From: Enterobacteria phage CHB7
Strand: one strand, 5' to 3'
Sequence record: MK562504.1
Length of the DNA: 64,000 nucleotides
In this document: piece after piece, positions 940-42,207 of the stretch
Layout: every line of letters starts with the position of its first letter
Numbering within the stretch: the first letter of the stretch is position 1
Notes under the pieces: model-generated
Database searches by the model: none
Seen by the model: only the letters and a program-made list of their open reading frames with translations
What the model was told of the DNA's origin: nothing
Position numbers and translations under genes: made by a program

Positions 940-3639
940 ATGGAAAACGTAGATTTTGAAAACTTGCACTTGGTAGGTGATACCGAAACTGATGGGTTAC
1001 TCCTTGAGTTCACAAAAGCACACGTAATGGCATTTGCAGATTACAAAGATGACAGTGACGAACCTGCTGTGTGGGTCTTCACCGATGAACCTATTCTTGG
1101 TCACAAGTGTACCAAATACATCAAAGGTGGTCTTCGTGAAGGTGTAGAGTTTGCTCTTAAGGCAAAGCGTCTCTGCATTCATAACGGTCTGGGTTATGAC
1201 TGGTGGGTGTTCAATCACATTGCGCCGGACTTATGGAACTTTGACAATCCGAAGTGCAAACCTTGGGGAGACTTCTTTCAGGATTCTCTTATCCAGTCTC
1301 GTGTTCAGTGGATGGATAGACCTACACCGAAAGGTTACAAAGGTGCTCATGGTTTGGCTGCATGGGGTGCTCGTGTTGGTGTTCGTAAACCAGAGATTGA
1401 AGAGTGGGGCGTTTGGAATGCTGACATTCTGAACCGTGTTGTTGAGGATATTCGAATCAACGCCAAAACTAAACGTGCTCTTGATAACGAATACCTGAAG
1501 TTGAAGAAGTGTGGTGTAGACACTTACGAAACATACATGCGAGCTAAAGAAACATCTTTTTGGATGAGTCAGCAAGCTATCAACGGTTGGAAAGCTGATA
1601 TTGAACTTATGCAGTTCCATGTCAAAGAACTTGACAGAATGACTGATGAATTAGCTGCTGAAGTTGAGCCTCATCTACCACCGACTATTAAGACGAAAGG
1701 CAAAGTCACTGGCGAAGAGTTTGCAAAAGCTTGGAACGAGTATGTGGAGACATTTGGTGAAGCAGATGGTTTGAAGCGTATCACTAAGTATCCAAAAACC
1801 AAGTTCCGTCAGCAGGTTCGTAATGGTGAGATGCAGACTTACGCTATCAAACCTTTTGGTAAACCGACTACCAAGATTTTCAACATTGAGAAGCGTAACT
1901 GCTACACTCCAACTAACACGGTTACGGGAGAAGAGTACAAAGAAGGTTTTGTGGCAATGAAAGATGCTCGTGCAGTTTGTAACGAGTTGAATGCTGTGAT
2001 TGATAAGAAGTGTAAAGACTGGAAACCAGTTAAAACTGTGAAGACTGTGAAGTACTACAACAATCACGTAGTAAATCACTTTGAACTTGAGTCAAGCCGT
2101 TACACAGGTTTGATTGATGCGCCTTATACACCAATTGAGTTTGAAGTTTCACGCATGACTCAGGTTGCGGTTGTGAAGGATTATCTGAAAACTCTTGGCT
2201 GGATTCCTGATGACTGGAACTACAAGAAAGATTCTGATGGTCGTCCGGTGAAGGTTTGTCGCTTCAAAGACAACAAGAAGATGATTCGTAAACATCCGAA
2301 ATGGCAAGAGATGGTAGACCGTTGTGGGTTGAACTATGTTGAACATGAAGGTGTACAGTACATCGAACACAACTGGTCTGTGAAGAAGTACACAGATTTG
2401 CTTGAGCCTTGCTTGATTCGTACTTCACCGAAACTGACTGAATCATCTTACGATACGATTGAAGGGGAACTTGGACAGAAGATTGCGAAGTACTATACTT
2501 TGATGCACCGACGCAGAACTATCGAAAACTCAAAGGATGACGAAAAGGGTTGGTTAAACCAGATTCGTCCAGATGGTCGTTTGAGTGCTGGTGCAATGGT
2601 GTTTGGTACTTCAACTGGACGTATGACACAATATGGAATTGTGAACGTACCTTCTGGAGCTGCTGTTTACGGTGAACCGATGAGGGCAGTCTGGATTTGT
2701 GAAGAAGGAACAAACGTAGTTTCCGTTGATATGAACTCTGCACAGCTTGTTCTACTGTGTAACTTTATGGGTGATAAGGAGTTCACCAAAGCGGTAACTC
2801 AGGGTAAAGAAGAGATTGAGTTTATCCGTCAGGAAGACGGTAGATACTACTGTAAACACTTTGACGAATACCTGAATCCAGAAGTTGATAAGTATCTGCG
2901 TTACGACTCTGAAAATGACTTGTACGTAGTCTACTCAGGTACTGATGCTCATACACTGAACAGTATCTACTTCAGCTTGAACGAAGAACAAGATATCTTG
3001 ACTTGTCGTATGACTCAGGATGAAAATCTTCTTCACGAAATCAGTAAGGGTCGTAAGAAAGCTAAGAATGGTATCTATGCGTTACTGTTCGGTGCTGGTG
3101 ATGAGAAGTTTGCTAAGACGATTAAAGCTGCGACTACTCAGGAAGGTGCATTAACTAAACAGACTTACTTTGTGCGTTTGCCGAAGATTAAGAAACTGTT
3201 AGATGACTTGGAAGCTGACTTTAAAGCAACTAAGAAAGCACTCGAAGAAGTATTTGGTAAGACTGCTGCAATTGCTAAAGGTGGTTTTGTCAAGGTTGCT
3301 GGAGCATGGTTGTGGTGTAAGTCTCCACACAAACTGTTGAACTACTTGCTGATGGGTTCAGAGGCACAAGTTCAGAATGAAGCAATCAACCTTGCATGTC
3401 GTCGTATGATTGATGAAGGTTTGATGAAGTTGAACGGTCGTAAGCCAGCTATCGGTGCTCGTTTACTCTGTGCATATCACGATGAAACAAGTTGGGAATG
3501 TCCAGAGAGCATGACAGCAGAAGTTAAGGCTGTGACTGACTGGTACTACGGTCAAGCTTCTAAGAACTTAGGGCTTCGTAAAGAAACTCTGGTAACAGGG
3601 ACTGGTAAAGTTGGTAAGTCTTGGTATGAGGTGCATTGA
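940..3639 (+). CDS. DNA polymerase, family A (T7 gp5-like) with 3'-5' exonuclease domain
   Basis: 899 aa; exo motif DTETDGL near N-terminus; segments HNGLGYDW, AHGLAAWGARVG and APYTPIEF resemble T7 DNA polymerase; RBS GAGAGGGAG before ATG at 940. Confidence 0.9.
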   Translation: MENVDFENLHLVGDTETDGLLLEFTKAHVMAFADYKDDSDEPAVWVFTDEPILGHKCTKYIKGGLREGVEFALKAKRLCIHNGLGYDWWVFNHIAPDLWNFDNPKCKPWGDFFQDSLIQSRVQWMDRPTPKGYKGAHGLAAWGARVGVRKPEIEEWGVWNADILNRVVEDIRINAKTKRALDNEYLKLKKCGVDTYETYMRAKETSFWMSQQAINGWKADIELMQFHVKELDRMTDELAAEVEPHLPPTIKTKGKVTGEEFAKAWNEYVETFGEADGLKRITKYPKTKFRQQVRNGEMQTYAIKPFGKPTTKIFNIEKRNCYTPTNTVTGEEYKEGFVAMKDARAVCNELNAVIDKKCKDWKPVKTVKTVKYYNNHVVNHFELESSRYTGLIDAPYTPIEFEVSRMTQVAVVKDYLKTLGWIPDDWNYKKDSDGRPVKVCRFKDNKKMIRKHPKWQEMVDRCGLNYVEHEGVQYIEHNWSVKKYTDLLEPCLIRTSPKLTESSYDTIEGELGQKIAKYYTLMHRRRTIENSKDDEKGWLNQIRPDGRLSAGAMVFGTSTGRMTQYGIVNVPSGAAVYGEPMRAVWICEEGTNVVSVDMNSAQLVLLCNFMGDKEFTKAVTQGKEEIEFIRQEDGRYYCKHFDEYLNPEVDKYLRYDSENDLYVVYSGTDAHTLNSIYFSLNEEQDILTCRMTQDENLLHEISKGRKKAKNGIYALLFGAGDEKFAKTIKAATTQEGALTKQTYFVRLPKIKKLLDDLEADFKATKKALEEVFGKTAAIAKGGFVKVAGAWLWCKSPHKLLNYLLMGSEAQVQNEAINLACRRMIDEGLMKLNGRKPAIGARLLCAYHDETSWECPESMTAEVKAVTDWYYGQASKNLGLRKETLVTGTGKVGKSWYEVH

Positions 3640-4151
3640 TGCAAGATTGTGGTTTTACTCATGAGCAATTAAAATCATGGATTCACTACGACCCCTTAAC
3701 AGGGGTCTTAACTTGGATTGGTAGACCTCCTAACAGTGGTCGGGTGGTTATAGGCAGTCAAGCTGGGTCAATCAAAAGGACAAAATCTGGTGTGTATCTT
3801 CATACACAGATACTAGGTTACAGGACAGGGAATCACCGTATTGCTTGGTTCTGGATGACTGGAAAATGGCCTGATAAACATATTGACCATAAGGATGGAG
3901 ATGGTCTAAACAATGCTTGGGAGAATCTTAGAGAAGCCACGAAAGAGCAGAACATGGCTAACAGGAGACAACCTAGAACATCAAAGAGTTTAAAAGGCAC
4001 AAGTAGAAGCAAATCTGGAAAGTGGATTGCACAGATTAACCATAATGGAAAGACTAACCATATTGGCACATACATGACCGAGCAAGAAGCCCACGAAGCT
4101 TACTGTGAAGCTGCTATAAAACTCCACGGAGATTTTGCAAAACTTAGTTGA
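3639..4151 (+). CDS. HNH homing endonuclease with AP2-like DNA-binding domain
   Basis: IDHKDGDGLNNAWENLREATKEQN HNH core; C-terminal SGKWIAQINHNGKTNHIGTY AP2-like segment; ATG overlaps polymerase stop (TGATG). Confidence 0.8.
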   Translation: MQDCGFTHEQLKSWIHYDPLTGVLTWIGRPPNSGRVVIGSQAGSIKRTKSGVYLHTQILGYRTGNHRIAWFWMTGKWPDKHIDHKDGDGLNNAWENLREATKEQNMANRRQPRTSKSLKGTSRSKSGKWIAQINHNGKTNHIGTYMTEQEAHEAYCEAAIKLHGDFAKLS

Positions 4152-32891: not shown

Positions 32892-34508
32892 TTAACGTCT
32901 AAGCCCCTCATAAGGATTGCTTCTCACTAAATCAGTGTGAGTACCCATAGAAGGTGGCTTGAATAGTTTTACTTCGTTGAGACTGTTGAAAGCATCGCTT
33001 GTGGCATCCACTTGGTCATCCTTGGTTTTCCCATCCCCACAAAAACCTTCCAGTTCTTGGAAATAGGCTTCGTTCCAGCTACCTCTAACGATTTTTACCA
33101 ATCCTGCTTCAGAAGCAGCAGAGAAACCCGCAAAACGGGTAACTTTATCTTTATTGGTTGGTTTGGCTCTTGCACGATAACCTTTCTCGGCAAGTTTTCT
33201 GATAAGAGATGTTGCGTAGGATTTACCAGCAGCGCCTGGGTCTTGAGGAATAAAGATGCCAGTACGTTTGCCGTCGCTTTCAGCAGTCAAGTTAATTTGT
33301 GTCTCGACTCCAGAAGGTCTATCTCTAAATCTTACTACGTTCATGACATAATAGCAACCATCTTTTTTAGATTTAGCCATTCTAACACCTGCTGTCCAGT
33401 CAGGGTTAGGGTTAACTTCAGACGGTAAAGTAGCCGCTAAGTCCCATGCTCTAACGTCAAATACGTCAGGTGGAACTGAATCAACAATCTCACACCATTG
33501 TCTTTGCCAATAGTTAGAACCTTCTGCACGAGCTTTCCAGTTACCAAATCTCAAACGTGCAACGTTTACTGGAGTGTTGTTTTCCAGCTTACCACGATAC
33601 TTCGGTTCCAAGAAGTCAAGGATTGGGTTATCATCAATCGTACCAGAGATAAAGGTATATGTCTGAGGAATCTCCAGAGGGAACATTTCAAGAATCTTGT
33701 CTCTGTCCCAATCAGATACCATCACGCCATCATTCATTACATACCAACGAATACGACCACATTTCTCAGGGTCTGGATAACCTTCTTCGTCTAAGAATGG
33801 TTCTACCCAATCATAAATGAAGTGGTCTCTGTCTGGGTTCATGGAAATCTTCATGTAAGAGTCACCTTCAGCACCAGAACGCAAACGAGTTTGCAGGTAT
33901 GAAATCTGTGACGCAGAGAAGTGTGTACCTTCGTCAAAGTAAATTGCTGAGTATTCAATACCCTGATGACCTTCAGCGTGTTTTTCAAGTTCTAAGTAGG
34001 TAAACTTGATAGTAGCCCCAGAAGGGAATACGATAGTCATCTTCTGTTCATGTGGAACACCACCGAACTTACCAAAAAGCTTCTTCGCAGCAGGCCATAA
34101 ACCACCTTGTAACTGTGTCGTGTTTCGACGGAAGTATACAGCGTTGTAGTTAGGGTCTTCGATAAATCTGAGTGAATCCATCAGCAAAGCAGCAGTCTTA
34201 CCAGCACCAGCCGCACCACCATATAGAACTAAGTCAGCATTTGTGTTAAGAAATACTTCCTGAGAGCCGGGTTGTGGAGCTACATAGTTCTTATCAGTCA
34301 TAAGTTTGAAGATAAGTCTTACTTGGTCTGGAGTGTATCTTAATAAAGTCAGAATCTGAGTAGGAAGGAATTTAGAGGGGTCTTTACCAAATGACTTGAT
34401 AATATCTTTAACTTCATCAGAAAGCCCCAACTCTCCAGCTAGGACTTTCCTTACATCTTCCACTCGCTTCTGCTTAACAGCATTCAAATCCATTAAGCGC
34501 CTCCGCAA
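32892..34508 (-). CDS. terminase large subunit
   Basis: Walker A LYGGAAGAGKTAAL; 538 aa. Confidence 0.85.
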   Translation of the reverse strand: MRRRLMDLNAVKQKRVEDVRKVLAGELGLSDEVKDIIKSFGKDPSKFLPTQILTLLRYTPDQVRLIFKLMTDKNYVAPQPGSQEVFLNTNADLVLYGGAAGAGKTAALLMDSLRFIEDPNYNAVYFRRNTTQLQGGLWPAAKKLFGKFGGVPHEQKMTIVFPSGATIKFTYLELEKHAEGHQGIEYSAIYFDEGTHFSASQISYLQTRLRSGAEGDSYMKISMNPDRDHFIYDWVEPFLDEEGYPDPEKCGRIRWYVMNDGVMVSDWDRDKILEMFPLEIPQTYTFISGTIDDNPILDFLEPKYRGKLENNTPVNVARLRFGNWKARAEGSNYWQRQWCEIVDSVPPDVFDVRAWDLAATLPSEVNPNPDWTAGVRMAKSKKDGCYYVMNVVRFRDRPSGVETQINLTAESDGKRTGIFIPQDPGAAGKSYATSLIRKLAEKGYRARAKPTNKDKVTRFAGFSAASEAGLVKIVRGSWNEAYFQELEGFCGDGKTKDDQVDATSDAFNSLNEVKLFKPPSMGTHTDLVRSNPYEGLRR

Positions 34509-34514
34509 ATAGAA

Positions 34515-34715
34515 TTATTCGGCAGCAACTTCTTCGGCAGCTTTAACACCAAACTTTGCATCAACTGCATCTAACAGTTCATCCATATTGGTTTCTTTAA
34601 TATCTTTACCAGTTGCATTAGCCAGACGGTGAGCAACACTGATAATAGTGTTCTGCAACAGTTCTGCTCTTTTGTTTGCTTCATAAAGTTCTTTGTAAAC
34701 ATTAGTCTCGTTCAT
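34515..34715 (-). CDS. small hypothetical protein
   Basis: 66 aa ORF upstream of terminase. Confidence 0.4.
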   Translation of the reverse strand: MNETNVYKELYEANKRAELLQNTIISVAHRLANATGKDIKETNMDELLDAVDAKFGVKAAEEVAAE

Positions 34716-34936
34716 TGTATTTCTCCAAAAATAATAAGTGAATGGCTCTCCTGAAAAAAGACGGCGCAGAGACCGTCAAGGAGAAACCACAATGTATGCC
34801 AGAGACATACTGTATAAGTCTTCTTATAAAGTATACATCTGTAAAAAAGCCCTGTCTAAAAATACTCTTCGGTAGCGAAAGGAAGAATACTCGTAGCAGG
34901 GCGTTATTATTTTATTTTGAGAGAGAGTAAAATAAT

Positions 34937-35012
34937 TTGGAGCGTCGAAAGGGAGTTGAACCCTCATAATCCTGTTTTGCAGACAGGTACATAGCCATTT
35001 CTGTCATCGACG
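34937..35012 (-). tRNA. tRNA-Cys (GCA)
   Basis: Hand-folded cloverleaf; loop CUGCAAA; encoded CCA; U73. Confidence 0.7.
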
Positions 35013-35019
35013 CATTAAA

Positions 35020-35113
35020 TTGGAGGAAGATACCAGACTTGAACTGGTACGCCGATTTCTCGGTTACTGACAGTTTAGCAAACTGTTCCCTTACCTTTTA
35101 GGGTTAATCTTCC
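35020..35113 (-). tRNA. tRNA-Ser (GCU), long variable arm
   Basis: Anticodon stem ACAGT/ACTGT, loop TTGCTAA; variable-arm hairpin CCGA-GAAA-TCGG. Confidence 0.7.
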
Positions 35114-35115
35114 AA

Positions 35116-35850
35116 TTATTTGTTCAAGGCATCCTTCATTTCTGGAGTTGCGATTGAATCAATCACACCAGTTTTACAAGCATCATCAAACCAGTCTGGT
35201 AAGACACCTGCAAGGAAACCATTAATATTAGTTTTCAAGTAATCAGCAATTAACGCTGCTTCATCTGCAATCATCTTAGTGACCTCATTAGCATATGCAG
35301 TAATCTTAGCAATGCCCTGATTAATCGCTGTAACGGCTTGTGAGGCTAAGGAAGAGATAGTGTCTAGTCCTTTATCAATTGCATCTTTTAAGTCGCTTAG
35401 AACGCCATTCACAGTGTCTATGGAGGTGTTAATCAAATCCATAGCTTGTTGACCGTACTCTGTAGCTACTCCCATGATTCCACTAAACGGTGTACAACCA
35501 ACTTGCTCTCCTGCTGCACCCATAACGTTAGAGTAACCTTTAGCTACCTGCATACGTGATGAGAACTCATCTACAGATTTCTGACCGTATTGAGTCAGTG
35601 TGTTAGTTGTCGTTGTAGTGCTTCCAAGGCTCGTTGAGAAGCTACTTAACAAGGCTGTAGTCAAACCAGCAGCAATAAGTTTATCTTTTACTGTAGGGTC
35701 TGATACCGAGCTAATAGAGCTTACTAATGAAGTAGAAGCGGCAATTGTGCCACCAAGGATTGCTGCACCAGTAATAAGAGGGTTAGAAAACCCGTTACCG
35801 GATTTCAGGAGATTAAAAATCTCTTTACCTTGTTCTGTCATCTCTTTCAT
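35116..35850 (-). CDS. hypothetical protein
   Basis: 244 aa Ser/Thr/Ala-rich protein inside the tRNA region. Confidence 0.5.
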   Translation of the reverse strand: MKEMTEQGKEIFNLLKSGNGFSNPLITGAAILGGTIAASTSLVSSISSVSDPTVKDKLIAAGLTTALLSSFSTSLGSTTTTTNTLTQYGQKSVDEFSSRMQVAKGYSNVMGAAGEQVGCTPFSGIMGVATEYGQQAMDLINTSIDTVNGVLSDLKDAIDKGLDTISSLASQAVTAINQGIAKITAYANEVTKMIADEAALIADYLKTNINGFLAGVLPDWFDDACKTGVIDSIATPEMKDALNK

Positions 35851-35867
35851 TAAGCACCTTTTGAAAT

Positions 35868-35944
35868 TGGCGGGTTAGTGGGATTTGAACCCTCTTCTCA
35901 TGTTTTTCAGACATGCGCTTTAACCATATAAGCTACTTAACCCA
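35868..35944 (-). tRNA. tRNA-Phe (GAA)
   Basis: Loop CUGAAAA; 3' end ambiguous by about 2 nt. Confidence 0.6.
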
Positions 35945-35951
35945 TTAAATT

Positions 35952-36028
35952 TGGGGTGACCTACGGGAATCGAACCCGTATAGACCATGTTCACAGCATG
36001 GGTCATTATCCATTTATGATAAGGCCAC
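35952..36028 (-). tRNA. tRNA-His (GUG)
   Basis: Loop CUGUGAA; C73; perfect T stem. Confidence 0.65.
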
Positions 36029-36059
36029 ATGTAAGGACTCTCGTAAGAACCCTTAGAAG

Positions 36060-36135
36060 TGGCAGCAGCGTAAGGATTTGAACCTTAATCTTTCAGCTTC
36101 AGAGGCTGGAGCATTGCCAGTTATGCTACACTGCT
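36060..36135 (-). tRNA. tRNA-Gln (CUG)
   Basis: Loop CUCUGAA; G73. Confidence 0.55.
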
Positions 36136-36142
36136 ATTAATT

Positions 36143-36221
36143 TGGTACTCCATATCGGATTCGAACCGATACATAACACAGATTTTAAGTCTGGCCTCTC
36201 TGCCAATTGGAGTAATGGAGC
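36143..36221 (-). tRNA. tRNA with Leu anticodon UAA, standard length (short variable region)
   Basis: Loop CUUAAAA; A73; about 79 nt, no long variable arm. Confidence 0.5.
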
Positions 36222-36223
36222 AT

Positions 36224-36299
36224 TGGCGGGGGATGTTGGAATTGAACCAACTTCTTCGATTTCAAAGACCGAGGTTTTAACCTTGTAAACTAATCCCCT
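36224..36299 (-). tRNA. tRNA-Gln (UUG)
   Basis: Stem TCGGT/ATCGA, loop CUUUGAA; G73. Confidence 0.6.
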
Positions 36300-36307
36300 T
36301 TAAATCT

Positions 36308-36865
36308 TTACTTTCTTAGTGGATGAATAAAGAATGCCAACATAATTCTTTCCCTTGAAAATGCTCTTTCTTCTGGGACAACACTTTTAAGTTTCCAACC
36401 AACATAAATTCTCCAGTAAAATTGTTTACCAAAGATTTTAATTGACGGGATAAAAGCGAATAAACCCCAAGCATTACTGTTCCACATCAGGAGATAACCT
36501 GTCTGATTATCTTCAGGGTTAGAACTTACGTTGATATTACCTTTCCACTTAGTAACATCTTTTACATCTCTTCCTAATACATGGTAAGAGAAGTTATAAG
36601 CTTTGTTTCTCCAGAGCCATCCAACTCTCTGCATATAAACACCGAGCTTACCAATCTTTCGAATCTTAGCCCATCGTTCAACGTGACCTTTGTCACCATC
36701 AATTGGGTTGTCATAAGTTTCCATCCATCTGAATCCAAAAGGTAAGTGACCTTTCTTCTCACTGTAGAATGGAACCACAAATGGTGCTAAGATTACTGCT
36801 AAGATTGCTGCAAATGGCTCTAGCAAAGCTAGGAAAATCCATGAAGCATACTTCAAATATCTCAT
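36308..36865 (-). CDS. membrane protein, hypothetical
   Basis: ATG 36863-36865 with AGAGG RBS; N-terminal hydrophobic segment; track ORF extends upstream from TTG into tRNA-Arg. Confidence 0.5.
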   Translation of the reverse strand: MRYLKYASWIFLALLEPFAAILAVILAPFVVPFYSEKKGHLPFGFRWMETYDNPIDGDKGHVERWAKIRKIGKLGVYMQRVGWLWRNKAYNFSYHVLGRDVKDVTKWKGNINVSSNPEDNQTGYLLMWNSNAWGLFAFIPSIKIFGKQFYWRIYVGWKLKSVVPEERAFSRERIMLAFFIHPLRK

Positions 36866-36885
36866 TTTAAATAGCCTCTTTAAAT

Positions 36886-36962
36886 TGGTGCAGAATAAGG
36901 GATTCGAACCCCTAACAAACAACTTCGTAGGTTGCTGCTCTATCCGTTTGAACTAATTCTGC
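36886..36962 (-). tRNA. tRNA-Arg (ACG)
   Basis: Loop CUACGAA; perfect 7 bp acceptor GCAGAAT/ATTCTGC. Confidence 0.65.
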
Positions 36963-37124
36963 AATGTTCTTTTGAGATTCCTGTCTAGCTCTCTTCTTAT
37001 CTCTTCTGAGAAAGCGTCTACGATGGTCTGTACGCCATTTGTAGTAATCTTCCTCACCAGCGTGAGAAGCACAGCAACCACAACTTGCAATTTCAACTTT
37101 ACCGTGTCTACCATAAGGCTTCAT
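36912..37124 (-). CDS. small basic Cys-containing ORF overlapping tRNA-Arg (doubtful)
   Basis: ATG with AGGAG RBS right after the preceding tRNA; last 51 nt overlap tRNA-Arg. Confidence 0.3.
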   Translation of the reverse strand: MKPYGRHGKVEIASCGCCASHAGEEDYYKWRTDHRRRFLRRDKKRARQESQKNIAELVQTDRAATYEVVC

Positions 37125-37140
37125 AGGAATCTCCTAAAAT

Positions 37141-37218
37141 TGGTGTTCCAAGACGGATTCGAACCGTCACTAATACAAGGTTTGAGCTTGCATCCTCTGC
37201 CAATTGGGATACTGGAAC
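37141..37218 (-). tRNA. tRNA with Leu anticodon CAA, standard length (short variable region)
   Basis: Stem GCAAG/CTTGT, loop CUCAAAC; A73; D-arm similar to the UAA tRNA. Confidence 0.5.
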
Positions 37219-37220
37219 AT

Positions 37221-37295
37221 TGGTACTCGCTGAAGGACTTGAACCTTCTTCACCAACTTGTAAGGATGGGGCTTTACCATATAAACTAAGCGAGT
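37221..37295 (-). tRNA. tRNA-Val (UAC)
   Basis: Loop CUUACAA; A73. Confidence 0.6.
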
Positions 37296-37391
37296 ATGAA
37301 AAGAGGTCTGAAGTTGTGCCGCTAACTCAACTCCGTGGAATTTGTTACGGTCTTCAGTTGACTCAAGCGGTCTTTCACTCGACCTCTGAAA

Positions 37392-37468
37392 TGGTGCTGC
37401 TCACAGGACTCGAACCTGCATTTCCATCCTTACAAGGGATGTGTAATAGCCAATTATACGAAAGCAGC
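37392..37468 (-). tRNA. tRNA-Thr (UGU)
   Basis: Stem CATCC/GGATG, loop CUUGUAA; A73. Confidence 0.65.
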
Positions 37469-37474
37469 ATTGTT

Positions 37475-37549
37475 TGGAGCATCCAGAGGGAATCGAACCC
37501 TCAACCTCAGTTTGGAAGACTGTAATTTTCCCGTTTAAACTATGGATGC
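37475..37549 (-). tRNA. tRNA-Gly (UCC)
   Basis: Loop CUUCCAA; U73; perfect T stem. Confidence 0.65.
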
Positions 37550-37555
37550 ACTAAT

Positions 37556-37631
37556 TGGTGGAGAAGCAGGGAATTGAACCCTGTACTTAAGTTTGCAAAA
37601 CTTATGTTTTAACCATGTAAACTACATCCCC
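37556..37631 (-). tRNA. tRNA-Ala (UGC)
   Basis: Stem TAAGT/ACTTA, loop UUUGCAA; G3-U70 wobble pair; A73. Confidence 0.7.
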
Positions 37632-37637
37632 AATGTT

Positions 37638-37713
37638 TGGTACAGGTGGAGGGAATTGAACCCATCGTCTTACTGATTAAGAGTCAGCCGCATAACCATT
37701 TTGCTACACCTGC
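37638..37713 (-). tRNA. tRNA-Lys (CUU)
   Basis: Loop CUCUUAA; A73. Confidence 0.55.
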
Positions 37714-37720
37714 ATTAATT

Positions 37721-37798
37721 TGGTAGGAGACAAGGGATTCGAACCCTCAAACACCAACTTCTAAGGATGGTAGGTTTACCAATTACCGTCAATCTCCC
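37721..37798 (-). tRNA. tRNA with Leu anticodon UAG, standard length (short variable region)
   Basis: Loop CUUAGAA; A73; about 78 nt. Confidence 0.45.
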
Positions 37799-37866
37799 AT
37801 TAAATCTTTGTAGAGAACTGCTAAGACGCCAAAGCAACAATGGTATCAAATGCCTTAACAATTCTC

Positions 37867-37887
37867 TAAAAAGACCTAACTGGTCTT
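37867..37887 (-). terminator. hairpin downstream of nuclease gene (weak terminator)
   Basis: AAAGACC-loop-GGTCTTT followed by U-rich tail on the minus strand. Confidence 0.35.
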
Positions 37888-38026
37888 TGCATAGTCTTGT
37901 TTAATCCGGTGACTAGAACCTTTGGAGAGCTTGATATTATCTCTTCTCCGTGACACCTACTAGGTGCTTTGTTGTGCGTGTACGACAATACACGAGGGAA
38001 ACCGAACGCTGTACCAGAGCGTGGGC

Positions 38027-38368
38027 TTAAATCTTTAAGCTAAGTTCAGTCTTGGACTTGACATCTTTAGCTTTGTAGATGACGACTTTATCAAGTGGTT
38101 CAATGTAAACAGCTAAGTAATCAACTTGAGAGTTATCAAAATTCATTATTCTATTTTCATTCTTGTTAGAACGAACTCTTTTCAGTTGCACTCTCCAAAG
38201 TTCACCTCTTTTGACTGATGTTGATTTTACCTCAACAGTCTCAATCAAACCATCTTTGTGAACTAGAAAGTCATACTTTGCATTATCTGTAGCTGGTGAA
38301 TACACTTCATAACCTCTTTTGAGGAAAGCTAATTGTGTAGCAATTTCACCTACTGAACCTTTCTTCAT
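38027..38368 (-). CDS. PD-(D/E)XK nuclease-like protein embedded in tRNA cluster
   Basis: ATG 38366-38368 with AAGGTGGTGA RBS; YDFLVHKDGLIETVEVKS resembles a D...ExK nuclease core. Confidence 0.5.
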   Translation of the reverse strand: MKKGSVGEIATQLAFLKRGYEVYSPATDNAKYDFLVHKDGLIETVEVKSTSVKRGELWRVQLKRVRSNKNENRIMNFDNSQVDYLAVYIEPLDKVVIYKAKDVKSKTELSLKI

Positions 38369-38390
38369 AATCACCACCTTAAAATTATTT

Positions 38391-38477
38391 TGGCAGAGAG
38401 TGCAGGAGTTGAACCCGTACCGTTTCCAGCAGCACCAGTTTTCAAGGCTGGTTGGTCTCCGTTGACCGCCACTCTCT
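38391..38477 (-). tRNA. tRNA-Ser (UGA), long variable arm
   Basis: Loop CUUGAAA; perfect acceptor AGAGAGT/ACTCTCT; G73; 87 nt. Confidence 0.65.
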
Positions 38478-38490
38478 CCGAAACAATCTT

Positions 38491-38573
38491 TGGCATGGGA
38501 CGGAGGAATCGAACCCCTTTGAGTAAGTTTTGGAGGCTTACGCACATGCCTTAGTGTCTTAACATCGTCCCAT
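38491..38573 (-). tRNA. tRNA-Trp (CCA), atypical 83 nt with enlarged D region
   Basis: Anticodon hairpin GTAAG-(C)CUCCAAA(A)-CTTAC; perfect acceptor; G73; extra nt between acceptor and D stem. Confidence 0.45.
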
Positions 38574-38715
38574 ATATTATTTCGAAGCTTACCGTATTAT
38601 CACAACACTGTAAAGCCCCTTCTCAGATTATTTACATGTTCTGGAAAACATGAGATACAGACCACCTCCCTACAGGAAGACCCGCTTAGGTCGTCTAAGT
38701 AATCTGCTAACTATT

Positions 38716-38743
38716 TGGTAGCCAAGGTAGGAGTCGAACCTAC
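38716..38743 (-). pseudogene. tRNA 3' fragment (CCA + acceptor + T arm only)
   Basis: TGG-T-AGCCAAG followed by T arm GTAGG-AGTCGAA-CCTAC; no matching 5' acceptor strand found within 100 nt. Confidence 0.4.
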
Positions 38744-38842
38744 TTACTCTCGAAGGTAGCTAACCTTCAGTAACTTTCCGACTTTCGTACATCTGTTAAC
38801 ATGTATTCAGATGGCTTACTAGTGTTGTCTTGACCATTAAAC

Positions 38843-38919
38843 TGGCACACCCTACAGGACTCGAACCTGTAACTCAGTGCTTAGAAGGCACTTGCTCTAT
38901 CCAATTGAACTAAGGGTGC
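38843..38919 (-). tRNA. tRNA-Arg (UCU)
   Basis: Loop CUUCUAA; G73. Confidence 0.65.
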
Positions 38920-39170
38920 ATTCTTATCTTTAAAGGCTCTCTTAGAAAACCCTTAAAGATGCCCACATTATTAATCATACCGTGGGCGAGTACGCCAAAT
39001 TCTTTGATGAGGGGTTGGAAGACCTCACTGGTGTTTAGCCTATTAAGCTACTGCCAGAAAAACATTATCGTTTGCATTTATTTTAGTTTGCAAAAATAGA
39101 CGCTACGCTAACGAAAACTAAGGTTACTATAAAGTGGTCACATCTGAATGTCAACAACTTTATCGAATTT

Positions 39171-39246
39171 GGTAGTGGTAGCAGGAATCGAACCTGCGAT
39201 GTTCGGTTATCAGCCGAGTGTTATGACCGTCTTAACTATACCACCA
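39171..39246 (-). tRNA. tRNA-Ile (GAU)
   Basis: Loop CUGAUAA; A73. Confidence 0.6.
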
Positions 39247-39248
39247 TT

Positions 39249-39325
39249 GGAGGTTCAGATGGGATTCGAACCCACATTCATAGGGCTTATGAAACCCTTG
39301 CATTACCTTATCTGCGACTGAACCA
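39249..39325 (-). tRNA. tRNA with CAU anticodon (Met or Ile2)
   Basis: Stem AGGGT/GCCCT, loop UUCAUAA; U73. Confidence 0.55.
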
Positions 39326-39403
39326 TAATAAGTTGCCCTTTGGAGAAGAACTATTGAGTGGGTGTTTCCAGCCGCGCAGGTGTTCTTCAGTTAAGGGCTA
39401 ATT

Positions 39404-39479
39404 TGGTAGGAGTGGAGGGATTCGAACCCTTCGCCTGTCAGATTAAAAGTCTGCCGCATCACCATTCTGCTACACTCCC
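39404..39479 (-). tRNA. tRNA-Lys (UUU)
   Basis: Loop CUUUUAA; A73. Confidence 0.6.
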
Positions 39480-39735
39480 ATTGAATCATCTTTGCAGTAA
39501 CCTACGCAAACCTTGCTAAAGGGTTTGTAGAGTCATTTCCTATTAAGCTAATCTAGAATCATGCTAAGGAAATTCATCGGCACTCATGGGACGACATTTA
39601 GCTCCATAAGTCACTGCAAAGAGGATTACCAGACCGTTGTTTATCTTAAGTGCTCCCATTACACCAACACGCCGTAACGTGTGAAGGAATCGAACCTTCG
39701 CCTTTTCTTTACCAGAGAAATAGATTGTTTTATAC

Positions 39736-39765
39736 TTGCTGTAAACGGTCTTCTGTAAATTTGTT
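39736..39765. repeat. inter-tRNA spacer repeat (TGCTGTAAACGGTCTTCTG family), copy 1
   Basis: Same about 20 nt word recurs at 40281-40306 and 40440-40466; CCAGACC word recurs near 39639, 39787, 40238, 40395. Confidence 0.6.
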
Positions 39766-39906
39766 GAGCCAGACCAAGTTTTAAATTTTTCAAAATTAAA
39801 TTGGCTTGAAATTTTTTAAGTTGGCTTGCTGAATTTGGTCTTCTGCTCCTTTAAAGAACACTCGTAAGAACTCTTTAAGGGAGGGGCTAAAAAGCCCTCT
39901 CAAATT

Positions 39907-39984
39907 TGGCGGTTACGAAGGGATTCGAACCCTCATCATCTCCCGTGACAGGGGAGTATTTTAACCAGATTAAACTACATAACC
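39907..39984 (-). tRNA. tRNA-Asp (GUC)
   Basis: Perfect stem CTCCC/GGGAG, loop CUGUCAC; G73. Confidence 0.7.
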
Positions 39985-39990
39985 TTTATT

Positions 39991-40078
39991 TGGTGCGCCG
40001 TGAAGGAGTCGAACCTACCGAGTCATAATGACAAGTGATTTACAGTCACCACCGCTTCCATCTACGGGATAACGACGC
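39991..40078 (-). tRNA. tRNA-Tyr (GUA), long variable arm
   Basis: Loop CUGUAAA; 88 nt; A73. Confidence 0.6.
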
Positions 40079-40148
40079 ATTTTATTCCATTCAGGCTAAG
40101 GACTTGCACCTTACAAATCGGTGAGCATTACGCTTCTCTCCCAAATCT

Positions 40149-40225
40149 TGGCGGTGAGTTAGGGATTCGAACCCTATGCCATTCGGTTAACAGCCGACCG
40201 CACATGCCTTATGTGCTTCCTCACC
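40149..40225 (-). tRNA. tRNA-Asn (GUU)
   Basis: Loop CUGUUAA; G73; perfect T stem. Confidence 0.65.
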
Positions 40226-40306
40226 ATGTTTAGTATTGCCAGACCGTATCTTTTCATTTTTCCTATAAAAATTTTTGAGATTGCTGTAAACGGTCTTCTG
40301 CAAATT

Positions 40307-40383
40307 TGGAGGCGGGTGCAGGAGTCGAACCTGCCGATACCATGCTAATGAGACATGTGAGACGCCCTTTCTCTATACCCGCG
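40307..40383 (-). tRNA. tRNA with CAU anticodon, unpaired 1-72 (C-C)
   Basis: Loop CUCAUUA; first acceptor pair is a C-C mismatch; U73. Confidence 0.5.
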
Positions 40384-40466
40384 AACTTTTATGACCAGAC
40401 CAAACTTTTAAGTTTTCTATGCGCGAAAAGTAAAGTTGTTTGCTGTACTTGGTCTTCTGTCAAATT

Positions 40467-40541
40467 TGGAGTCGTAGACGGGATTCGAACCCGCGAGCAA
40501 CTGATTGAAGGTCAGGTGGCTAACCATTTGCCTTCTACGAC
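40467..40541 (-). tRNA. tRNA-Glu (UUC), tentative
   Basis: Stem CTGA/TCAG, loop CCUUCAA (C at position 33 is unusual); perfect acceptor. Confidence 0.45.
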
Positions 40542-40548
40542 ATTAATT

Positions 40549-40625
40549 TGGTCTCCGTTGAAGGGATTGAACCTTCGACCTCACCGCCCCAAACGGCGCA
40601 CTCTACCAAACTGAGCTAAACGGAG
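40549..40625 (-). tRNA. tRNA-Pro (UGG)
   Basis: Loop UUUGGGG; C1-G72; A73; perfect acceptor. Confidence 0.7.
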
Positions 40626-40744
40626 ATAATCTTTTCAAACTCTATGTAACCACTTTAACATTATTTTTTAGTGGTTGTCAAGAACTTTTTTAAAATATTT
40701 TTCAGTATCTTAGAAAAACTCTCGATTTCGTTTCTATGTAGAAC

Positions 40745-40773
40745 ATATTAAAGGGTATCGAGCAGATTGTCAA
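40745..40773 (-). promoter_or_regulatory. sigma70 consensus-like promoter (TTGACA-17-TAATAT) reading into the tRNA cluster
   Basis: Minus-sense TTGACA (40768-40773) and TAATAT (40745-40750), 17 bp spacer inside a GGGTAT/ATACCC palindrome. Confidence 0.6.
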
Positions 40774-40791
40774 TACCCTTTTTAAAACTTT

Positions 40792-42207
40792 TTACCAGAT
40801 GTAACGGTCAATCATTACTGCTTTGAGCATTACGCTGATTGGGTCAAACTTCTCACCACCAAGCAGAGCTTTTAAAGTGGCTGGAGAGAACCCTGATACC
40901 ATTGCTACCCCATTATCCTTAACAGACACTTCGCAAGTACCATTACGGTTTGCTAAGTACCAGAATACCAGTTGTGGCATTTCGTATCCAGCTTTTTCAT
41001 ACTTACTGCGAATTGCTTCGAAGTTTGTATGGCCATCTGCACCGTCAACCTGATTGAACTCCATATCAGAGAAGATAATAAGCTTACTTGGCATTGCTGC
41101 CTGAGTCAAGCCATTTCTTACACCGATTTCAAGAATACGGTCAAATGCTGCTTGCAGGTTTGTTGAACCATACTCAACCTTGTTCATTACCTGACGCATA
41201 CGAGTCTGCAAATCACCACTCAGAGTAATAAAGTGAGGTCTTGTGGAGTAAACCATTAACTCATCTTTAAAGCACCCTGTATTGCGTTCTGAGACGTATA
41301 ACGCCAAAGACAGGCCAATATCAAGAGCAGTTACAGAACCAAATGTCTGCCAAGTCATAGACGCTGATACATCTGACATACACAGAATGTTTTCACCTTC
41401 TGCCATCCAGTTTGGTAATGCTTTCCACTGTTCGTTTGCAACACTTGCTTTACCATGATTAACGGACTTCAGAATATCGTATGGGTACACAGCACCAGCA
41501 TTAATCTTGGCCTCACCTTTGGATAAAGCTTCAACGTAAGCTGCATAACGTTCACCGTCTTTCTTGCTGAACAGCTTTTGATAACGTGCAGCAGCCAGTG
41601 AAGGAATCTTGCTGTAGTCAATCTCACCAAAGTTATTTGTAGAGATTTTCTGTTCAACGGTATCAGACAAAGCTGATAACAGTGTACGGTATTCTTTCTC
41701 ACTCAGGCTTGCAAACTTACAGAAACGTTTTACAAACTGTTTGTGTCGTGGTTTTACTCGTGGTAACCACTTAGCCGCTAAACCTGCTGTATCAGGGTCT
41801 AACAAGGCTGCTTCTAAATGCTTGAAAGCATCTGTCTCATAACGAGTACCTACGAAGATTTTGAAGTCATCGAAACGACCTAATTCAGAAATCTTATCCA
41901 TGATACGAAGAACTTGGAAAGAATCCAGAATGTTATCTTCGATTGCTTGTAAGAGGACAGTTCGGAAAGCTTTACGCTCACCCATACCTTCTCGTACATC
42001 TCGCATATGCAGTAAAATACGAACTGCTACATCAACATCCTCACGCAAAGCTTTGTAGAACAAGTCTGGGAGAATCTCTACATTGCCACGGCTTGAGCCA
42101 GCAGCTTTATAGAAGTCTACCAAGGCAGACATTGATGATGTATGGTTAACAGCACCATTTTCAGTTCGCCCTGCATGGAGGTGCGAATGTTTAAATAAAT
42201 CGCTCAT
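40792..42207 (-). CDS. vWA-domain protein with MIDAS motif (DUF2828/TROVE-like?)
   Basis: 471 aa; DxSxS MIDAS motif in LCMSDVSASM; N-terminal RTENGAV segment; purine-rich RBS. Confidence 0.6.
   Translation of the reverse strand: MSDLFKHSHLHAGRTENGAVNHTSSMSALVDFYKAAGSSRGNVEILPDLFYKALREDVDVAVRILLHMRDVREGMGERKAFRTVLLQAIEDNILDSFQVLRIMDKISELGRFDDFKIFVGTRYETDAFKHLEAALLDPDTAGLAAKWLPRVKPRHKQFVKRFCKFASLSEKEYRTLLSALSDTVEQKISTNNFGEIDYSKIPSLAAARYQKLFSKKDGERYAAYVEALSKGEAKINAGAVYPYDILKSVNHGKASVANEQWKALPNWMAEGENILCMSDVSASMTWQTFGSVTALDIGLSLALYVSERNTGCFKDELMVYSTRPHFITLSGDLQTRMRQVMNKVEYGSTNLQAAFDRILEIGVRNGLTQAAMPSKLIIFSDMEFNQVDGADGHTNFEAIRSKYEKAGYEMPQLVFWYLANRNGTCEVSVKDNGVAMVSGFSPATLKALLGGEKFDPISVMLKAVMIDRYIW

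Follow-up and report, generated by a model that had tools for sequence, protein, structure and literature searches.

A PDDEXK_5 nuclease gene and a linked tRNA-Ser allele in the tRNA array of Enterobacteria phage CHB7: a probable free-standing homing endonuclease

Enterobacteria phage CHB7 (sequence record MK562504.1), of which a stretch of 64,000 nucleotides (the window) was analysed here, belongs to the Ounavirinae (FelixO1-like phages) and carries 24 transfer RNA (tRNA) genes recognised by ARAGORN, all on the minus strand. A gene for a protein of 113 amino acids lies within this array, in the same orientation, between tRNA-Ser(UGA) and tRNA-Leu(UAG) (Table 1). The initial annotation, made from the sequence alone, had described this open reading frame (ORF), its place between the two tRNA genes and its strong ribosome-binding site (RBS), and all three descriptions hold: the RBS, AAGGTGGTG (38372-38380), stands 3 nt ahead of the ATG. 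The 113-residue ORF also agrees with the N-terminus MK.GS.GE, which is a common start among homologs from many sources. A reading of 172 amino acids from a GTG at 38545 (38027-38545) was rejected as an artefact that runs through tRNA-Ser. The TAA stop codon of the nuclease gene is supplied by a spacer motif, AAAGATTTAA, which is found at sites without the gene and also stands ahead of tRNA-Leu(UAG). A hairpin had been noted after the gene; it does exist, but it is a feature of the host locus, since the block to which it belongs is also present in phages that lack the gene. In GenBank, identical copies of the gene are labelled 'hypothetical protein' or are not annotated.

Table 1. Coordinates of the nuclease gene, the linked tRNA allele and the surrounding features (window positions unless a relative is named).
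Feature	Position	Strand	Basis and remarks
PDDEXK_5 endonuclease gene, 113 aa	38027..38368	-	ORF reading; ATG 38368-38366, TAA 38029-38027
Spacer from the tRNA-Ser CCA end to the nuclease ATG, 22 nt, holding the RBS	38369..38390	-	Direct reading; kept in all carriers
tRNA-Ser(UGA)	38391-38477	-	ARAGORN; upstream neighbour of the nuclease gene
tRNA-Ser(UGA) 'allele C', 87 nt, class II cloverleaf, encoded CCA	38391..38477	-	ARAGORN, fold and allele table
351-bp insertion relative to empty-site phages	38034..38384	-	Alignments; junction ambiguity about 2 nt
Allele-specific 10-nt spacer upstream of tRNA-Ser, ATTGTTTCGG	38478..38487	-	Alignments; upstream block edge, background type resumes at 38488
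tRNA-Leu(UAG)	37721-37798	-	ARAGORN; 228 nt downstream of the nuclease gene
Noncoding block between nuclease gene and tRNA-Leu(UAG), 228 nt	37799-38026	-	Also in gene-less phages
Hairpin ACGCT-CTGGTAC-AGCGT	38006..38022	-	5' variable hairpin of the downstream noncoding block
HNH gene in relatives	EcSzw-2 locus 1499-1951; mistaenkt 1499-1951; PC79-13 1299-1751		Window equivalent 37798/37799
Unannotated tRNA-like gene, 83 nt, just upstream of tRNA-Ser	38491-38573	-	Missed by ARAGORN and Rfam
120-nt element directly past tRNA-Arg(UCU)	~38716-38835	-	Starts GGTCAAG; ends T-arm, acceptor, CCA (GTAGGTTCGACTCCTACCTTGGCTACCA)

A scan of 37600-39000 for promoters and terminators gave no signal beyond chance, and the nuclease gene probably relies on transcription of the tRNA array. 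The tRNA genes on either side of it are complete, so that the arrangement is not that of a gene encoded in a group I intron. No intron family was matched by Rfam at E ≤ 1 across 34000-41500, and ARAGORN with introns allowed found no split tRNA around the gene. The nuclease gene is thus free-standing and not intron-encoded.

From its sequence and its modelled structure, the protein is clearly predicted to be a PD-(D/E)XK nuclease of the PDDEXK_5 / I-Ssp6803I family. It matches Pfam PDDEXK_5 (PF11645) with 63.3 bits against a cutoff of 26.1 (E = 3e-17; residues 2-109 on profile positions 5-116 of 138), and PF11645 is carried by all 120 homologs listed in the profile search. The sole real match in a sequence search of the PDB is 2OST, the structure of I-Ssp6803I (E = 4e-6), whose YD...VQVK motif aligns to D33 and E46-V-K48. 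The catalytic set of the E ... D ... (E/Q)xK type is intact (E8, D33, E46 and K48), and D33 and K48 are invariant in an alignment of 94 homologs. AlphaFold on the single sequence gave an unusable model (predicted local distance difference test, pLDDT, 49) and was replaced by AlphaFold2 on the 94-sequence alignment (pLDDT 94.8). When the latter model was compared with the PDB by Foldseek, the top four matches were chains of 2OST, with E-values of 2e-8 to 4e-8 and template modelling (TM) scores of 0.83-0.84; the root-mean-square deviation (rmsd) to chains A and B was 2.0-2.2 Å over 111 columns. The runners-up, namely EcoRV, the SPARDA nuclease domain and Hjc resolvases, all had E > 3e-3. The D...E-x-K nuclease core that had been noticed in the initial annotation is therefore well founded, and the fold prediction that had been recommended as a check returned a PD-(D/E)XK fold with I-Ssp6803I as by far its best match. 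The PADLOC 'HEase' model also matches the protein (1.6e-8), PHROGs places it in phrog_5018, a group listed there with function unknown, and NCBIfam gave no meaningful match.

The coding sequence appears to be maintained. Against copies with synonymous divergence (dS) of 0.23, 1.1 and 2.4, the ratio of nonsynonymous to synonymous change (dN/dS) is 0.12, 0.10 and 0.08, respectively, which indicates that the protein is under purifying selection, and the reading frame is intact in 10 of the 10 copies examined.

The tRNA-array segment 36800-39300 matches 273 phage records, nearly all of them from Ounavirinae, and its closest matches are those of two Suspvirus phages, EcSzw-2 (97%) and SUSP2 (95%); judged by this segment, the window is probably from a phage of Suspvirus type. 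The nuclease protein was found by tblastn in only eight Ounavirinae records: it is 100% identical in Barry and Tribble, 94-98% identical in EC106, LF110P1, SPJ41, SWJM-02 and NJ12, and 71% identical in LNA6. The first seven of these phages carry the gene in the same slot (7/273), and the LNA6 homolog is a paralog that lies one slot upstream, 15 nt past tRNA-Arg(UCU). Overall, about 3% of related phages have the gene. Metagenome assemblies add two protein clusters at 98% identity, as well as an 85% variant in the same slot, and a profile search with a narrower alignment returned two viral loci and one genome locus.

The insertion was delimited by alignment with mistaenkt, EcSzw-2, SUSP2, PC79-13, HP1, Sf17, Moogle, Sf13 and LNA6, the slot being compared in 18 phages. 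It begins 6 nt past tRNA-Ser and is bounded by AATAA and GATTTAA. Empty sites read tRNA-Ser...GCC-TAATAA/GATTTAAGCCC, where the slash marks the insertion point, and carrier sites read tRNA-Ser...GCCA-AAATAA(TTTTAAGGTGGTGATT-ATG...AGCTTAAA)GATTTAAGCCC, where the parentheses enclose the inserted sequence. The 85% variant has a second copy of the heptamer GATTTAA at its 3' junction. Such a sporadic presence at one site, with a precise footprint, is what a homing gene would be expected to leave. The comparison of relatives that the initial annotation had called for, under which universal presence would have spoken against a mobile gene, thus came out in its favour.

The gene is accompanied by a particular form of the upstream tRNA-Ser(UGA), referred to here as allele C. 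This allele is found in every carrier examined, including two metagenomic contigs with the 85%-identical gene, and is absent from nine of the nine non-carriers in the 18-phage allele table. In blastn searches with allele C and its spacers, an identity of at least 96% was reached only in the seven carriers, and the next matches were tRNA-Ser genes of unrelated phages, at 78%. Among the non-carriers, all but SUSP2 (eight phages, including mistaenkt, EcSzw-2 and Sf13) have allele A, which is 90 nt long, has a longer variable arm and differs from allele C by about 30%; both alleles fold as class II cloverleafs. SUSP2 carries a third allele, B. In carriers of the 85% variant, allele C is identical at 87 of 87 positions even though dS between the nuclease genes has reached about 1.1, which points to an old and tight linkage between gene and allele. 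Allele C is presumed to be immune to cleavage. In SPJ41 and SWJM-02, it has a single C-to-A change at anticodon-loop position 32, and ARAGORN then makes no call.

The gene and the allele also appear to have moved together. Across the block 38027-38487, the window agrees with Tribble, a Felixounavirus, at 457 of 460 aligned positions, and with the Suspvirus SUSP2 at 83 of 107 alignable positions. In the left flank, the corresponding values are 190/223 for Tribble and 225/227 for SUSP2; in the right flank, 205 of 228 positions agree with Tribble, and there are large gaps in addition. The flanks are therefore 85-90% identical to Tribble versus 95-99% to the Suspvirus relatives EcSzw-2 and SUSP2. 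The transferred unit of about 460 bp consists of a 10-nt spacer, tRNA-Ser allele C, the RBS and the gene, with one crossover located within a few bases of the nuclease stop codon and the other as close to the 3' terminus of the tRNA-like element upstream. An element that is more similar between genomes than its flanks is what horizontal spread would produce, and the block bears the clear marks of a recent horizontal transfer of allele C plus gene between Felixounavirus-type and Suspvirus-type backgrounds.

We propose, with a probability of roughly 0.75, that the nuclease gene is a free-standing, intron-less homing endonuclease gene in a tRNA operon, the product of which targets tRNA-gene DNA. 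The initial annotation had already suggested a selfish homing element, and this suggestion is supported by the fold, the sporadic presence, the precise empty sites and the transferred block. The transcript of the gene would be part of the tRNA precursor, with translation starting from the gene's own RBS. During a mixed infection, the enzyme, which is probably an oligomer like I-Ssp6803I, would cleave the genome of a co-infecting phage that lacks the gene, either within tRNA-Ser(UGA) (allele A or B) or beside it. The break would then be repaired by recombination on the carrier template, a process that would copy in both the nuclease gene and allele C. The latter, with a changed sequence that still gives a tRNA fold, would shield the carrier from self-cleavage.

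This mechanism fits two precedents, the SegB lifestyle and the pseudo-palindromic tRNA-gene target of I-Ssp6803I; at the DNA level, the stems of a tRNA form natural inverted repeats. I-Ssp6803I is the only characterised PD-(D/E)XK homing endonuclease, and those proteins closely homologous to it had been regarded as chiefly cyanobacterial (PMC3384342). In Synechocystis, it is encoded in an intron of tRNA-fMet at position 33/34, and its tetramer recognises a 23-bp pseudo-palindrome (PMC3384342, PMC13011429); PF11645 endonucleases are known from cyanobacterial tRNA-fMet introns (PMC13011429). The window protein shares with this enzyme the Pfam family, the fold (TM 0.83, rmsd about 2 Å), the aligned catalytic motif and, as proposed here, a tRNA-gene target. 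However, it is shorter (113 versus about 150 amino acids), has E46 instead of Gln and is only 21-23% identical. Its gene is a free-standing phage gene that lies 3' of a complete tRNA-Ser, in contrast to the intron-borne, cyanobacterial gene of I-Ssp6803I. The second precedent, SegB of phage T4, is a free-standing homing endonuclease in the T4 tRNA cluster with an established homing mechanism (PMC2330249), and in mixed infections the tRNA genes next to it spread along with it. For the SegB family as a whole, an association with tRNA genes that shows no isotype preference has been reported (PMC13096335). The proposed lifestyle of the window gene is the same, but SegB is a GIY-YIG enzyme of unrelated fold and motif, and the PDDEXK_5 homologs lean to tRNA-Ser and tRNA-Leu. 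No GIY-YIG (SegB-type) domain was found in the window protein by Pfam at E ≤ 1.

This leaning emerged from a survey of the PDDEXK_5 family, which gave 21 independent homolog lineages at 25-85% identity. Their sources are Ounavirinae, the T5-like Vibrio phage pVp-1, phages of Streptomyces, Arthrobacter, Bacillus, Enterococcus, Pseudomonas and Synechococcus, a Vequintavirinae phage, a T7-like Klebsiella phage, viral and metagenomic contigs, and a contig of a Paenibacillus metagenome-assembled genome. In 20 of the 21 lineages, the homolog has a co-oriented tRNA gene no more than 150 nt away, often at 0-60 nt or overlapping the end of the ORF; the exception, KP32, has no tRNAs, and its homolog stands just past the DNA polymerase gene. 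The neighbour is tRNA-Ser in 9 of 18 testable lineages, versus 2.85 expected from local composition (P about 3e-5), and tRNA-Ser, tRNA-Leu or tRNA-Tyr in 14 of the 18, versus 7.5 expected (P about 4e-4). On a distance tree, adjacency to tRNA-Ser is scattered over all major branches. A broader idea can be put forward tentatively, at somewhat short of even odds: the phage branch of PDDEXK_5 would consist of endonucleases that are specialised for the DNA of tRNA genes, preferring those for tRNA-Ser and tRNA-Leu, spread as cassettes of nuclease and immune allele, and are a main cause of allele mosaics in phage tRNA arrays. We found no paper that notes, for PDDEXK_5, either the association with tRNA arrays and tRNA-Ser or the linked-allele cassette.

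Two homologs lie inside tRNA genes. In Enterococcus phage EFP01 (locus 1114-1649), a 463-bp insertion holding the homolog interrupts tRNA-Asn(GUU) directly behind the anticodon; the insertion is essentially ORF plus RBS and leaves no space for a ribozyme. Of the other Schiekvirus records, 29 match the EFP01 region, each with ~54% query coverage and 92-99% identity, the length expected without the insertion. The record that was aligned, iF6 (locus 316-388), has an uninterrupted tRNA-Asn gene with identical exon sequence. The 3' end of the EFP01 homolog ORF also resembles the D-arm region of this tRNA (about 22 of 27 nt), and the tRNA region of EFP01 contains a ROOL RNA (2112-2698; Rfam RF03087, 265 bits) about 500 nt downstream of the nuclease gene.

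The other split gene is in the metagenomic contig L011, where a second PDDEXK_5 gene (1870-2337) stands between the halves of a Ser-like tRNA with perfectly complementary acceptor strands, GGAGATA and TATCTCC. When the possible exon junctions were enumerated with ARAGORN, almost every one gave a tRNA call. In L011 and in a second, related phage contig, L010, a 3' tRNA half (1816-1868 in both) follows directly past the first PDDEXK_5 gene, with no visible 5' half, and L010 has intact Leu, Leu and Gly tRNAs where L011 has its second PDDEXK_5 gene. Rfam searches for group I introns were negative in EFP01 (locus L033), L011 and L039 at the thresholds used there. For these bare ORFs in anticodon loops, removal at the RNA level with the help of the encoded PD-(D/E)XK protein would be a further reading, much less likely than the specialisation on tRNA genes put forward above.

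Several points weigh against homing by the window gene. Cleavage, target site and biased inheritance are so far predictions, for the window protein as for every phage member of the family. A pseudo-palindrome scan of the empty-site allele gave only the anticodon stem-loop, as any tRNA gene would. The linkage of allele C may reflect hitch-hiking from the donor lineage and not immunity. Moreover, the 71% paralog of LNA6 follows a tRNA-Arg(UCU) allele that is shared with phages without the paralog; a private tRNA-Arg allele linked to this paralog had been considered and was rejected for the same observation. The isotype enrichment comes from a rough test, made without phylogenetic correction. Finally, alternative alleles are common across the array, including at tRNA-Thr and tRNA-Ile, which have no adjacent nuclease, and therefore allele swapping alone is no proof of endonuclease action. 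Taken together, homing fits the family match, the sporadic distribution, the footprint, the cassette transfer and the purifying selection better than any rival explanation.

The first of these rivals is a domesticated or accessory nuclease, kept for harming competing phages or host DNA, or for promoting recombination or amplification of the tRNA region, and not for its own spread. The strong purifying selection on the protein would suit such a role, as would the mosaic of alternative alleles across the whole array, and SegB benefits its phage by amplifying tRNA and anti-defence genes (PMC13096335). However, the rarity of the gene (7-8 of 273 records), the precise footprint and the recent transfer of a minimal cassette are signatures of a selfish element. 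An accessory role also overlaps mechanistically with homing, and the two are hard to tell apart from sequence alone; we consider it unlikely.

A structure-specific DNA nuclease, that is, an Hjc-type Holliday-junction resolvase serving phage recombination or packaging, is highly improbable. The label 'Holliday junction resolvase' is attached to homologs in Streptomyces and Arthrobacter phages, and Hjc structures are among the Foldseek matches, but far more weakly (E ≥ 0.013, TM 0.45-0.59) than I-Ssp6803I. The closest relatives of the protein are not Hjc enzymes and its presence is not lineage-wide; a resolvase would be expected throughout the subfamily and not in about 3% of its phages, and would leave the tRNA-gene neighbourhood of 20 of the 21 lineages unexplained.

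Even less credence can be given to an action on RNA, whether in processing of tRNA precursors, as an anticodon nuclease, or in excision of its own insert from a pre-tRNA, part of which the initial annotation had offered as an alternative. The gene is embedded in a tRNA transcript, the archaeal tRNA-splicing endonuclease 3AJV shares the broad fold, and the two homologs inside tRNA genes have no room for a ribozyme and no Rfam intron match. However, the Foldseek match to 3AJV is marginal (E = 0.035, TM 0.48) and was the only similarity to EndA-type or PrrC/RloC-type RNA nucleases, none being found in Pfam, NCBIfam or PADLOC. In addition, a complete metal-binding E/D/ExK set is what DNases typically have, the tRNAs on both sides of the window gene are intact and need no splicing, and the gene is too sporadic for a general processing function. 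Equally little speaks for an inactive remnant of a once-mobile endonuclease gene drifting to loss: homing endonuclease genes often degenerate after fixation and this gene is rare, but all ten copies have intact frames and conserved catalytic residues, dN/dS stays at about 0.1 even at deep divergence, and the block recently transferred between genera is 99% identical.

For a phage, a nuclease gene is ordinary; the somewhat new and testable point is the cassette structure together with the family-wide tRNA habit. In the jumbo gut phages called Jug, 80 stand-alone PDDEXK_5 genes have been counted as homing endonucleases (PMC12880540). These genes are also phage-borne, stand-alone members of the same Pfam family, but they are annotations only, with no target, tRNA linkage or cassette structure described. 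The window locus offers a testable phage example, with defined donor and recipient alleles in cultured coliphages and a cassette of about 460 bp. If allele C is indeed an immunity determinant, the pair would show selfish nucleases driving the turnover of phage tRNA genes, and would also explain part of the mosaicism of the array. Across phages of Proteobacteria, Firmicutes, Actinobacteria and cyanobacteria, the tRNA habit of PDDEXK_5 parallels that of the unrelated SegB family (PMC13096335). For annotation, such genes would be better labelled putative homing endonucleases than 'hypothetical protein' or 'Holliday junction resolvase'.

A neighbouring slot appears to be built to the same design, that is, a nuclease gene with a replacement tRNA allele. 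EcSzw-2, mistaenkt and PC79-13 have a 150-amino-acid HNH gene (Pfam HNH, PF01844) between the 228-nt noncoding block and tRNA-Leu(UAG). Ahead of the HNH gene stands GGGAGATTGAC, which equals nt 1-11 of the tRNA-Leu allele found intact in the window, and behind the gene comes a complete alternative tRNA-Leu(UAG) allele. It thus shares with the PDDEXK_5 gene the array and the replacement-tRNA arrangement, here with an 11-nt stub of the displaced tRNA-Leu(UAG), but it differs in nuclease family, in tRNA and in slot, and is absent from the window.

Divergent tRNA alleles are shuffled among the genera of Ounavirinae, the intervening spacers being 95-100% identical. Genes including those at 37392-37468, 37721-37798 and 39170-39245 (Thr, Leu-UAG and Ile) exist in two to three alleles with 58-80% identity. 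The Leu tRNAs called by ARAGORN (UAG at 37721-37798, CAA at 37141-37218 and UAA at 36143-36221, all on the minus strand) are 77-79 nt long and are without the long variable arm of bacterial tRNA-Leu. On the same strand, Rfam adds a good tRNA (53.7 bits) at 40470-40541 that ARAGORN does not list, a partial match at 39683-39736 and a weak one at 39996-40076; the tRNA and tRNA-like genes of the array therefore number more than the 24 called.

The 228-nt block that follows the nuclease gene is a candidate for a structured RNA; no Rfam family matches it. It is better conserved across Ounavirinae genera than the tRNAs themselves. Its 5' hairpin varies whereas its internal hairpins are invariant, and it also contains a terminator-like AAAGACCAGTTAGGTCTTTTT and, at the 3' side, a long helix in which three pairs are compensatory. 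The 5' hairpin has a different sequence in empty-site phages and is still a hairpin there.

Two further elements lie upstream of tRNA-Ser. The 83-nt tRNA-like gene has acceptor strands AUGGGAC/GUCCCAU, a discriminator G, an encoded CCA and a CUCCAAA anticodon loop (Trp, CCA) with a C31-A39 mismatch, or equivalently a 9-nt loop; its anticodon stem shows compensatory changes in relatives (GTAAG/CTTAC versus AACGG/CCGTT). The 120-nt element past tRNA-Arg(UCU) is present in some relatives only and is replaced in LNA6 by the 71% nuclease paralog.

Two protein genes on the minus strand lie in or border the array: 36308-36922, encoding 204 amino acids with a domain of unknown function (DUF), DUF7338, and 40792-42207, encoding 471 amino acids with DUF2828/DUF7788. 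Homologs of the latter also border PDDEXK_5-carrying tRNA arrays at two of the surveyed loci (L019 and L020). Far from the array, the initial annotation had pointed to an HNH gene overlapping a stop codon near 3639, and this gene was recovered as the plus-strand ORF 3636-4151, which encodes 171 amino acids with HNH_3 and AP2 domains, overlaps the stop of an 899-amino-acid ORF (940-3639) and probably gives the window a second homing endonuclease gene.

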